Source: Escherichia coli O157:H7 (lineage in GTDB: Bacteria; Pseudomonadota; Gammaproteobacteria; Enterobacterales; Enterobacteriaceae). Taken from it: a stretch of DNA of 64,000 nucleotides. The stretch lies in NCBI RefSeq assembly GCF_013167455.1, contig NZ_CP038328.1. One strand, 5' to 3'. Position numbers: made by a program. Positions 18,001 through 21,000 of the stretch are shown piece by piece (within the stretch, counting starts at the first letter, position 1; every line of letters begins with the position of its first letter).

Positions 18001-21000
18001 CCGTACCGGGCGCTTTTTTATGCGCACGGAACTGGAAGGGATTTTTAATGATTCCACCCTGCTGGCGGATCTCGATAGCGCATTGCCAGAAGGCTCCGTG
18101 CGTGAGCTGAATCCTGCCGGTCGTCGCCGGATAGTGATTCTGGTCACTAAAGAAGCGCATTGCCTTGGCGATTTGTTGATGAAAGCCAATTATGGCGGCC
18201 TGGATGTCGAAATCGCGGCAGTGATTGGTAACCACGATACTTTACGTTCTCTGGTTGAGCGTTTTGATATACCGTTTGAGCTGGTAAGCCATGAAGGGTT
18301 AAGCCGCAACGAGCACGATCAAAAGATGGCGGATGCCATTGATGCTTATCAACCTGACTACGTGGTGCTGGCGAAGTATATGCGGGTATTAACACCGGAA
18401 TTTGTGTCACGCTTCCCGAATAAGATCATCAATATTCACCATTCCTTCCTGCCAGCGTTTATCGGCGCACGTCCTTATCACCAGGCCTATGAACGTGGCG
18501 TGAAGATTATTGGCGCAACCGCTCACTATGTGAATGACAATCTGGACGAAGGCCCAATCATCATGCAGGACGTTATTCATGTCGATCATACCTACACAGC
18601 TGAAGATATGATGCGCGCAGGTCGTGACGTCGAGAAAAACGTCTTAAGTCGCGCGCTCTACAAAGTACTGGCGCAGCGCGTCTTTGTTTACGGTAATCGG
18701 ACGATTATTCTTTAATCGCCAGCAAAAATAACTGGTTACCTTTAATCCGTTACGGATGAAAATTACGCAACCAGTTCATTTTTCTCAACGTAACACTTTA
18801 CAGCGGCGCGTCATTTGATATGATGCGCCCCGCTTCCCGATAAGGGAGCAGGCCAGTAAAAAGCATTACCCCGTGGTGGGGTTCCCGAGCGGCCAAAGGG
18901 AGCAGACTGTAAATCTGCCGTCATCGACTTCGAAGGTTCGAATCCTTCCCCCACCACCATGATTCACCACAGCGATGTGGTAACTTCGGTGAGATTGTGA
19001 AAGTTTGCACTCATCGGGGAAGGGTGAGAACCTTCGACTAAGGTTCGACTCGAGCGAAAGCGAGAGAACGTTTTCACAGGCAACGGCCCGAAGGGTGAGG
19101 AGCGAAGCGACGAATAATCCTTTCCCCACCGCCATCTCAAGCATTACCTCAAAATTTGAATTACCCCTGGTGGGGTTCCCGAGCGGCCAAAGGGAGCAGA
19201 CTGTAAATCTGCCGTCATCGACTTCGAAGGTTCGAATCCTTCCCCCACCACCATCACTTTCAAAAGTCCCTGAACTCTCAAGCGAATCCGTAAATAAATA
19301 TTCTGCCCAAGCGGCGAAGGATGAGAAGCTTCGACTAAGGTTCGACTCGAGCGCCAGCGAGAGAGCGTTGCCGCAGGCAACGACCTGAAGGGCGAAGCGC
19401 GCAGCGCTGAGTAATCCTTCCCCCACCACCATCACTTTCAAAAGTCCCTGAACTCTCAAACGAATCCGTAATTAAATATTCTGCCCAAGCGGGGAAGGAT
19501 GAGAAGCTTCGACCAAGGTTCGACTTGAGCGCCAGCGAGAGAGCGTTGCCGCAGGCAACGACCCGAAGGGCGAAGCGCGCAGCGCTGAGTAATCCTTCCC
19601 CCACCACCATCGCTTCCTGAAATAATCAAAACCTGTTACTCCGAGCTAATTTTGCCCAATGGCACCACGTTTACCGGACCTACAATATCCTCCCTTGTAG
19701 GTCGGATAAGCGAAGCGCATCCGACAACTCACCCCGCACCGTGCCCATAAAAAAACCCCGCCGAAGCAGGGTCTATGTGAACTAAAATTCGCTTAGTGAC
19801 GAGCGCGCACCAGCTGGTACTTACGTGTCAGATACTCCACCGGTACGCTCCAGATGTGTACCAGACGCGAGAACGGGAACAGCAGGAATAACGTCATCCC
19901 CAGCACCAGGTGTAGACGGAAGATAAACGCCACACCATCGAGGTGTTGAGAAGCGCCACCGTGGAAGGTCACTACCGACTGCGCCCAGCCAACCAGTTTC
20001 ATCATCTCGCTACCGTCCATATGTTGGGCGGAGAACGGAATGGTCAACAGGCCCAGCGCGCACTGGATAACGAGCAGCGACAGGATCAGTATATCCGCTC
20101 CGGTAGTCGTTGCACGCACGCGTGGGCTGAACAGACGACGTTTAAGCAAAAGCACGCCGCCAATCAGACACAGCACGCCGCTGGCACCACCAGCAAACAT
20201 CGCCATTTTCTGTTTCACTTCAATCGGCAGCCAGGCTTCATACATCCAGTGCGGCGTCAACATACCGAAGAAGTGACCGACAAAAATCCCCAGAATACCG
20301 ATATGGAACAGGTTCGACGCCAGGTTCATCCCTTTGCGATCCAGCATCTGGCTGGACGCCGCGCGCCAGGTGTACTGCCCGTAGTCATAACGCAGCCAGC
20401 TACCAATCAGGAAGACCGCCCCGGCTATGTACGGGTAGATATCAAAGAAGAACATATTCAGGAATTGCATTAGTGCTGTCCTCCGGTGGTGATATTCAGA
20501 TATTGCGGCGCGACGGCACCGGCAAAGCGACGCTGATGAGCAGTGATTGCTGAATCACCGCAGCCTTTGTCAGCAAAGAATTTAACCTGCTCTTCTTCCC
20601 AAACAGCATCCAGCGCCTGCGGCGTATCATCGCGCGCTTCGTCGGCAATTTTTTCCGCCACTTTGTCGCTGTCGATAGCGGTATTGGCCAATTTCAGCAG
20701 CAGATCAAACAGCACGGCATAACGGCTTTCACGCTGTTGCAGACGCGCACTCAGCAATGCCAGAATCGGCGCGATATCTTTCAAACCTTCCACGGCTTCG
20801 CTTTGCGGCAGCTGCGCCAGGTACTCCAGATACAGCGGCAGATGATCCGGCAATTCGCGGCTGTTTAACTGCAAGCCGTGCTGCTCGTACTGCGCCAGCA
20901 GGTCCACCATCGCCTGGCCGCGGTCGCGGGATTCGCCGTGCACATGTTCAAACAGCAACAGTGACGTGGCGCGGCCACGGTCGAACAGTTCGCTGTACTG

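Follow-up and report, generated by a model that had tools for sequence, protein, structure and literature searches.

Why should a bacterial tRNA operon repeat the 3′ end of its own tRNA behind each of its genes, and what are the elements that carry these copies? The question is raised by the tyrT-tyrV locus of Escherichia coli O157:H7, which lies in a stretch of 64,000 nt from contig NZ_CP038328.1 (assembly GCF_013167455.1), called the window here. An earlier note, made from the sequence alone, had described the interval 18960-19609 of the window as a tyrT-tyrV operon with rtT repeats that each retain a relic of the tRNA 3′ end. We conclude that the interval is very probably the distal tyrT-tyrV operon with three tRNA-linked repeats (TLRs) of the RtT family, one of an old spacer type and two tandem ones of a downstream type, cotranscribed and coprocessed with the tRNAs. 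The finding is correct but already known: this is a textbook locus, known from publications since 1978, covered by an Rfam model, and picked up automatically by RefSeq annotation. What keeps it of interest is that the TLR core and its structure are conserved across Enterobacterales in elements of no known function.

The identity of the two genes is straightforward. ARAGORN found exactly two tRNA genes in the whole window, both tRNA-Tyr(GTA); they are identical across their 85 nt, and each has the GTA cloverleaf, the long variable arm, and an encoded CCA. The two identical genes of the earlier note were thus confirmed; its interval does cover the repeats but starts after the first tRNA gene and so omits tyrT. 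The region matches E. coli O157:H7 chromosomes at 100% identity and lies between purU and narI, the chromosomal place expected of tyrT and tyrV in E. coli. In an identical O157:H7 record, the Prokaryotic Genome Annotation Pipeline (PGAP) gives the order purU, tRNA-Tyr, RtT small RNA (sRNA), tRNA-Tyr, two further RtT sRNAs, and convergent narI, with the label “RtT sRNA, processed from tyrT transcript”; the only genes annotated within the 1.5-kb flanks of that record are rssA, ychJ, purU, and narI/J/H. Together with the Rfam matches given below, this identity upholds the naming of the operon and its repeats. About 45 nt separate the predicted promoter, which we take to be the classical tyrT promoter, from the mature tRNA, a distance that suits a leader of that length; after the promoter, the sequence shows a GC-rich discriminator, GCGCCCCGC. 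The coordinates of these and the other features are collected in Table 1.

Table 1. Features of the tyrT-tyrV locus, with positions counted from the first letter of the window
Feature	Position	Strand	Basis or remark
tyrT promoter (predicted), TTTACA - 16 nt - TATGAT with TG	18797..18824	+	consensus scan, 10/12 match
tyrT, tRNA-Tyr(GTA), 85 nt, CCA encoded	18875..18959	+	ARAGORN; Rfam tRNA model, 53.4 bits; PGAP in identical O157:H7 record
Spacer-type tRNA-linked repeat, 175 nt	18960..19134	+	Rfam RF00391, 117.9 bits; repeat family search
tyrV leader, 34 nt	19135..19168	+	comparison with strain 4973 and other genera
tyrV, tRNA-Tyr(GTA), same sequence as tyrT	19169..19253	+	ARAGORN; Rfam tRNA model, 53.4 bits
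178-bp unit 1: linker 19254-19299, RtT 19300-19431	19254..19431	+	Tandem Repeats Finder; Rfam RF00391, 125.9 bits
178-bp unit 2: linker 19432-19477, RtT 19478-19609	19432..19609	+	Tandem Repeats Finder; Rfam RF00391, 134.2 bits
Intrinsic terminator of the convergent narGHJI operon	19753..19774	-	terminator scan
197-aa open reading frame, antisense to both tRNA genes and two RtT copies	18866..19459	-	open reading frame scan; best read as an artefact
91-aa open reading frame, homologue of K-12 ychS (b1228)	19335..19610	-	open reading frame scan and K-12 comparison
Frame of K-12 tpr (protamine-like, 29 aa, b1229), unit 1 position	19321..19410	+	TAA at codon 6 (19336-19338)
tpr frame, unit 2 copy	19499..19588	+	TGA at codon 10

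Behind tyrV, Tandem Repeats Finder reported a period of 178 over 19235-19615, with 2.1 copies, 96% matches, and 0% indels. The two downstream units are, as had been proposed, both of exactly 178 bp, and they differ from each other at 6 positions. The spacer between the tRNA genes, 209 bp long, consists of the diverged third copy that had also been noticed there (61% ungapped identity), followed by the tyrV leader. All three copies match the Rfam RtT model over its full length (1-130 of 130) and far above its gathering score of 45 bits, the structured part of the spacer copy being 19004-19134; a search of the window with Rfam returned no RtT beyond these three. Within the downstream units, composition changes from the 46-nt linkers, which are G-poor (A 0.37, C 0.26, G 0.09-0.11), to the 132-nt structured parts, which are G+C-rich (G 0.30).

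The copies of the tRNA end are equally well defined. The exact 19-mer AATCCTTCCCCCACCACCA occurs four times, at 18941, 19235, 19413, and 19591, that is, at the ends of both tRNAs and of both downstream units; shuffles of the window gave an expectation of 0.00 matches. The statement that every repeat ends in the last 19 nt of the tRNA is therefore exact for the downstream units (19/19 each), whereas the spacer copy ends in a relic with two substitutions, AATCCTTTCCCCACCGCCA (17/19; 19116-19134). All three repeats lie on the same strand as, and directly downstream of, a tRNA gene within the operon. According to Stenum et al. (2021; PMC8144298), TLRs are recognised by 18 to 19 bp that exactly repeat the 3′ end of a tRNA or 5S lying upstream; Egan and Landy (1978) were the first to describe them, and the catalogue of Rudd (1999) has 22 copies at ten K-12 loci.

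The duplication extends past the tRNA proper, in that the trailer TCACTTT (the 7 nt after tyrV) recurs along with the last 19 nt of the tRNA in both downstream units. The K-12 reference annotation names rttR, tpr, and ychS inside the array, and its RttR (171 nt) runs from the 8th nt past the CCA of tyrV precisely to the CCA that closes the first relic. The counterparts of this RNA in the window are 19261-19431, identical at 161 of 171 positions, and 19439-19609. The idea that the primary transcript carries repeated mimics of a processing site gains support here: it agrees with the RttR ends and with a published role for the 18-to-19-nt repeat, which PMC8144298 describes as proposed to direct RNase E-type 3′ processing.

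The relic is more than a dead fragment; it is one strand of the conserved closing helix of RtT. We gathered Tyr-type copies from 80 loci in other Enterobacterales by means of a core sequence pattern, the genera covered including Citrobacter, Enterobacter, Klebsiella, Salmonella, Serratia, Xenorhabdus, and Buttiauxella. The pattern proved specific for the Tyr type, a tRNA-Tyr lying directly upstream at every locus that held upstream sequence. In 99 of 120 copies, the relic departs from the E. coli 19-mer at no more than 2 positions. Aligned, 96 distinct copies from about 80 species have 87% mean identity and many invariant columns; columns 1-14, which are the linker end, vary, and from Escherichia to Serratia and Xenorhabdus the core of about 130 nt is conserved far better than the linker.

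RNAalifold used the relic in a closing helix, GGGAAGGAT/ATCCTTCCC, and left CCACCACCA single-stranded; in unit 2, the helix joins 19492-19500 with 19592-19600, and CCACCACCA is the 3′ tail. Across the 96 distinct copies the closing helix is paired in 99.4%, the three-helix structure has 96.1% of cells paired versus 35 to 56% with partners slid, and the observed covariation score was matched by 0 of 500 shuffles; part of the sequence was held constant by the pattern used for selection, and such alignment-based counts are not probabilities. By itself, RNAalifold registered double changes at just 2 of 27 pairs, since copies of the Tyr type vary too little, in part as a consequence of their selection by pattern. 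Compensatory changes occur in the hairpin 67-72/79-84. In a second hairpin, alignment columns 98-102/107-111, which was specified by hand, double changes are found in 4 of 5 pairs. This 5-bp hairpin, AGCGC-GCA-GCGCT at 19574-19586 in unit 2 and 19396-19408 in unit 1, is absent from the consensus structure line of the Rfam match. It occurs in the variants AGCGC/GCGCT, GGCGC/GCGCC, GACGC/GCGTC, and GCAGC/GCTGC, and its nonstandard cells are mostly GGAGC/GCGAC (about 30 copies), which appear to form a tandem G·A motif. The covariation signal in this hairpin is clear despite the selection by pattern. A closing helix matched to the host tRNA and a covarying hairpin argue for selection on the RNA.

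Is the match between closing helix and host tRNA peculiar to tyrosine? As a finder of TLRs behind other tRNAs, the core pattern failed, and we took Lys and Arg types from two K-12 operons instead: lysT-valT-lysW-valZ-lysYZQ (K-12 stretch 779500-782500) and serV-argVYZQ (2816500-2819500). TLRs are present in both, and their last 18 to 19 nt are the 3′ end of tRNA-Lys or tRNA-Arg, respectively. With the Rfam RtT model, the Lys type scores 47 to 60 bits and the Arg type 23 to 31 bits, so that automatic annotation, held to the gathering score, misses Arg-type copies. We also observed that the Lys-type Rfam matches reach back into the tRNA gene itself. Common to the Tyr, Lys, and Arg types is a core of the form GGAT-AACGTTGC..GCAACG-GCCCGAAGGGCGAG-hairpin-GAGTNATCC, and in all three the strand 5′ of GGAT is complementary to the type's own relic. 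The closing strands are GGGGAAGGAT and ATCCTTCCCC for Tyr, CGTG(A/T)AGGAT and ATCCTGCACG for Lys, and C(A)GGGAGGAT and ATCCTCCCGG for Arg; they pair in the minimum-energy folds of most copies, and the lysQ copy is without the 5′ closing strand. Pairing within a type reaches 8 to 10 of 10 positions, compared with 6 to 8 of 10 across types, a difference that is consistent yet modest because half of the helix is shared between types.

The Tyr type differs from the Lys and Arg TLRs in its tandem arrays with a 46-nt linker and in having about 40 additional nt inserted behind GGAT. The insertion holds a 22-nt antisense copy of the tRNA-Tyr T-arm (19 to 20 of 22 positions; shuffle P of about 0.001 to 0.003) and then a sense, T-arm-like segment. 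Folded jointly, tyrV and unit 1 (19169-19431) reach -89.7 kcal/mol, against -78.6 kcal/mol for the parts apart, a gain of about 11 kcal/mol with the antisense segment lying on the T-arm; these energies cover secondary structure alone, the tertiary structure of the tRNA being outside the model. The fold hints that the antisense segment of RtT could compete with tRNA folding in the unprocessed precursor, a lead that is at the level of speculation. One can go a step further and suppose that TLRs are selected cis modules that pair with or mimic the 3′ half of the host tRNA, tuning its 3′ maturation, its quality control, or the access of nucleases, or else that they spread by a copy mechanism that writes sense and antisense copies of tRNA ends. 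We consider this proposal rather unlikely; if true, either version would provide a repeat family that has been an orphan for 45 years with a function or an origin.

How the array behaves in populations also bears on what it is. A BLAST search with the flanks only, against 5,426 complete E. coli genomes, was sampled at 60 evenly spaced records; alleles were assigned from locus length and annotation, and six loci were checked by sequence. The number of downstream units, which the earlier note had suggested comparing among strains, varies in E. coli from 0 to about 5. A spacer copy is accompanied by three downstream units, as in K-12, in 14 of the 60, by two, the present O157 form, in 4, by none in 1 (STEC799), and by four in 1. 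About 30 of the 60 have a 34-nt spacer and 0 to 5 units, with IS4 downstream in 4; two have a single tRNA with one unit, and in eight (about 13%) the flanks are separated. K-12 resembles O157 in the purU-tyrT-tyrV-narI locus, the overall layout, the unit length of 178 bp, and the 19-nt copy, and its RtT/rttR array has three downstream units, the classical “3.14 repeats,” whereas O157:H7 has two.

Individual alleles show how the array changes. The flanks of STEC799 are 100% identical to those of O157 with both downstream units gone, so the loss must be recent. Strain 4973 is free of TLRs and reads tRNA, 34 nt, tRNA, flank, with junctions precisely at the CCA. In strain 4/0 (NZ_CP023849.1, 1399428-1406454), the one case of separated flanks that was checked, a cluster of seven genes and about 7 kb, of a lipid type, directly follows a single tRNA-Tyr, and tyrV and all TLRs are gone; the genes encode a fatty-acid desaturase, a sterol desaturase, a PAP2 phosphatase, an F390-synthetase-like protein, a metallo-β-lactamase (MBL) hydrolase, an epimerase, and a KAS III-like protein. 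Strain 5132 has an IS4 family transposase gene at the locus. In neither of the last two strains does an integrase adjoin the tRNA. A laboratory supF strain has been reported to have lost one tRNA gene along with RtT. Comparison of units indicates that arrays grow by duplication of internal units, the last unit being kept.

The two kinds of repeat keep to their positions in other genera as well. The GGATGAGAA type is found only after the last tRNA (84 copies, 0 between tRNA genes), and of the 16 copies with the spacer-type signature GGGTGAGAA whose position could be placed, 12 lie between tRNA-Tyr genes. The tyrT-tyrV spacer is shorter than 60 nt in 30 enterobacterial loci, and the 34-nt tyrV leader makes up the whole inter-tRNA spacer in alleles and genera that are without the spacer repeat. 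Because positions are type specific across genera, the spacer copy is an old paralogue that has been lost repeatedly. Repeat periods across genera range from 169 to 180 bp. At a locus of Leclercia adecarboxylata (1956-3058), we saw two RtT cores between the tRNA-Tyr genes and two after the second gene, so tandem expansion is possible in the spacer position too.

We imagine that the operon works as follows. One sigma-70 promoter would give a single precursor in the order leader, tRNA-Tyr, TLR, tRNA-Tyr, TLR, TLR. Each unit would contribute a G-poor, A/U/C-rich linker of about 45 nt and then a structured RNA of about 130 nt, the 3′ end of which copies the tRNA from T-loop to CCA and, in the downstream units, the trailer TCACTTT too. 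Because tRNA end and trailer are both duplicated in the downstream units, enzymes that cut after the tRNA may act alike after these units, an endonuclease cleaving in the trailer and exonucleolytic trimming then proceeding to the CCA. The products would be 171-nt RttR-type RNAs ending in CCACCACCA, in which the duplicated tRNA end, as the 3′ strand of the closing helix (GGGGAAGGAT/ATCCTTCCCC), should stabilise the released RNA. Copy number would shift by unequal homologous recombination or slippage, either between units or between the two tRNA genes. This scheme builds on the observed anatomy, family membership, conserved structure, and population polymorphism of the repeats; annotation and literature supply cotranscription, the ends of RttR, and the part that the repeat plays in processing, and the identity of the nucleases is our inference. 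The K-12 rttR annotation and the literature likewise suggest that the cotranscribed RtT may be freed in the form of a stable RNA about 171 nt long.

Several points weigh against this view of the locus. For O157:H7, the processing steps rest on K-12 annotation and second-hand literature. The Tyr-type closing helix is invariant and hence without covariation evidence; it also leaves a 3′ tail of 8 to 9 nt versus 4 nt in the tRNA, and therefore it is not a faithful mimic of the acceptor stem. Natural isolates exist without any TLR at the locus (4973) or without tyrV and all TLRs (4/0), so any function must be nonessential; that the array is dispensable in such isolates argues that any role is subtle. 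The sole phenotype reported, modulation of the stringent response, has been withdrawn according to PMC8144298.

One can also regard the repeats as passengers at the level of DNA, left by recombination at the tRNA 3′ end through an att-like duplication or unequal crossing-over, harmless and with a functionless RNA. The units are indeed bracketed by direct repeats that run from T-loop to CCA, and the alleles differ by exact whole units, the empty site included. The site is evidently recombinogenic, given the foreign cluster directly after the single tRNA-Tyr of 4/0 and the share of sampled genomes with separated flanks, of which that one was checked. [quoted passage not shown] (2021; PMC8144298), as excerpted. 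The apparent likeness to attL and attR of integrative elements at tRNA genes extends to the T-loop-to-CCA bracketing repeats, the empty sites, and an island at the same tRNA. Passengers would not be expected, however, to keep a core of about 130 nt much better conserved than its linker, nor to show covariation in an internal hairpin, which points to selection on RNA structure, nor to hold spacer-type and downstream-type lineages in their positions across genera. TLRs differ from attL/attR inserts in that the insert is only about 160 nt, the annotation of the identical O157:H7 record lists no integrase or recombinase within its 1.5-kb flanks, and the same core stands behind different tRNAs, each time with the matching relic, a distribution that a single site-specific recombinase would not account for; for the last two reasons we did not adopt the reading as an integrative element. 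Harmless passengers are rather unlikely.

It is also conceivable that the units mainly terminate or insulate transcription, with the unstructured, G-poor linkers serving as Rho-loading (rut) sites that stop a strongly expressed tRNA operon before it runs into convergent narGHJI and the repeats acting as redundant stops. The composition of the linkers, set against that of the structured parts, would suit such a role, and the terminator scan gave no intrinsic terminator-like site on the + strand from the array to narI. A Rho-dependent stop is reported, in work by Küpper et al. in 1978 and Rossi et al. in 1981, to lie about 225 nt past the tRNA CCA, which would be 178 + 47, the end of the second linker. 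Termination leaves unexplained, however, the conserved core, the closing helix matched to the tRNA, and a spacer copy that must be read through upstream of tyrV; alleles with zero downstream units exist, and our literature searches returned no relevant paper on a tyrT Rho terminator. We therefore think it doubtful that stopping transcription is what the units mainly do.

A role for RtT as a trans-acting RNA that modulates stringent or other stress responses is very unlikely. It goes back to the original claim of Bösl and Kersten (1991) on the rtT/RttR RNA, which is cited here through Stenum et al. (2021) and Skippington and Ragan (2012); the latter describe rttR as encoded by one repeat unit and present in multiple copies. 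The claim is still repeated in secondary literature. The conserved structure would be in keeping with such a role. Stenum et al. (PMC8144298) state, however, that the phenotype was traced to a neighbouring open reading frame (ORF) and the claim withdrawn in 1994, and they give a CsrA-binding score below 0.01 for the 19 TLRs in tRNA operons; isolates free of TLRs are, moreover, viable.

That the region encodes proteins, be it the 197-aa ORF, the 91-aa ychS-like ORF, or the 29-aa Tpr, can be dismissed almost entirely: the ORFs are present mechanically and K-12 annotation lists tpr and ychS, but a Pfam search of four ORFs gave no matches, PGAP annotates none of them in O157:H7, the longest is antisense to two tRNA genes with a length that tracks repeat number, the period of 178 is not a multiple of 3 (nor fixed in other genera), and the tpr frame is stopped in both O157 units. 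The minus-strand 197-aa ORF, for which the verdict of the earlier note stands, is best read as an artefact. In alleles that keep the frame, it becomes 201 aa (K-12) or 135 aa (STEC799), and all that the TLR-free and singlet alleles have is a 95-aa ORF with other bounds or ORFs no longer than 59 aa. The 91-aa ORF is likely spurious. We looked for an intact 29-codon tpr ORF from the ATG in the RtT 5′ stem and found it broken in O157, unlike in K-12; across species, the frame halts after 5 codons in 69 of 96 copies. As a conserved coding sequence, tpr was rejected on the stops in both O157 units and in these 69 copies, and it is probably not a real gene. As a matter of annotation hygiene, neither the two antisense ORFs nor the “tpr” frame should be called genes here.

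Taken as cotranscribed and coprocessed TLRs, the repeats of the tyrT-tyrV operon can be set beside other by-products of stable RNA operons. The Lys and Arg TLRs are like the Tyr type in the core, the 18-to-19-of-19 copy of the tRNA end, and the closing helix. The TLRs rrA, rrB, and rrF, which follow 5S in rrnA, rrnB, and rrnD, are likewise cotranscribed with a stable RNA and repeat, at their 3′ end, the last 18 nt of what lies upstream, a copy believed to guide processing; they bind Hfq and CsrA in vitro, whereas the TLRs of tRNA operons, tyrT included, are predicted not to bind CsrA (all according to PMC8144298). 3′ETS-leuZ, a functional RNA from a tRNA precursor, resembles RtT as a by-product that arises when RNase E processes a tRNA operon, but it is a short sponge that base-pairs with RyhB and RybB, and for RtT no target or sponge activity is known. 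In practice, the locus is a marker whose length is polymorphic through the number of downstream units (0 to about 5), presence or absence of the spacer copy, and singlet, IS4, and island alleles, and its polymorphism can confuse assemblies and strain comparisons.

Three smaller observations were made along the way. Record NZ_SZPQ01000002.1, titled Martelella alba, holds a tRNA-Tyr and RtT locus of enterobacterial type; Martelella is an alphaproteobacterial genus, and the organism name may be misassigned. Between the array and the narI terminator, at 19668-19712, there is an imperfect 18-nt inverted repeat, 83% complementary with a 9-nt loop, that looks by eye like a repetitive extragenic palindrome (REP). 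Elsewhere in the window, on the minus strand, Rfam matched the rdlD antitoxin RNA twice, at 35743-35802 and 36272-36337 (66.6 and 83.6 bits), indicating copies of the ldr/rdl type I toxin-antitoxin system.

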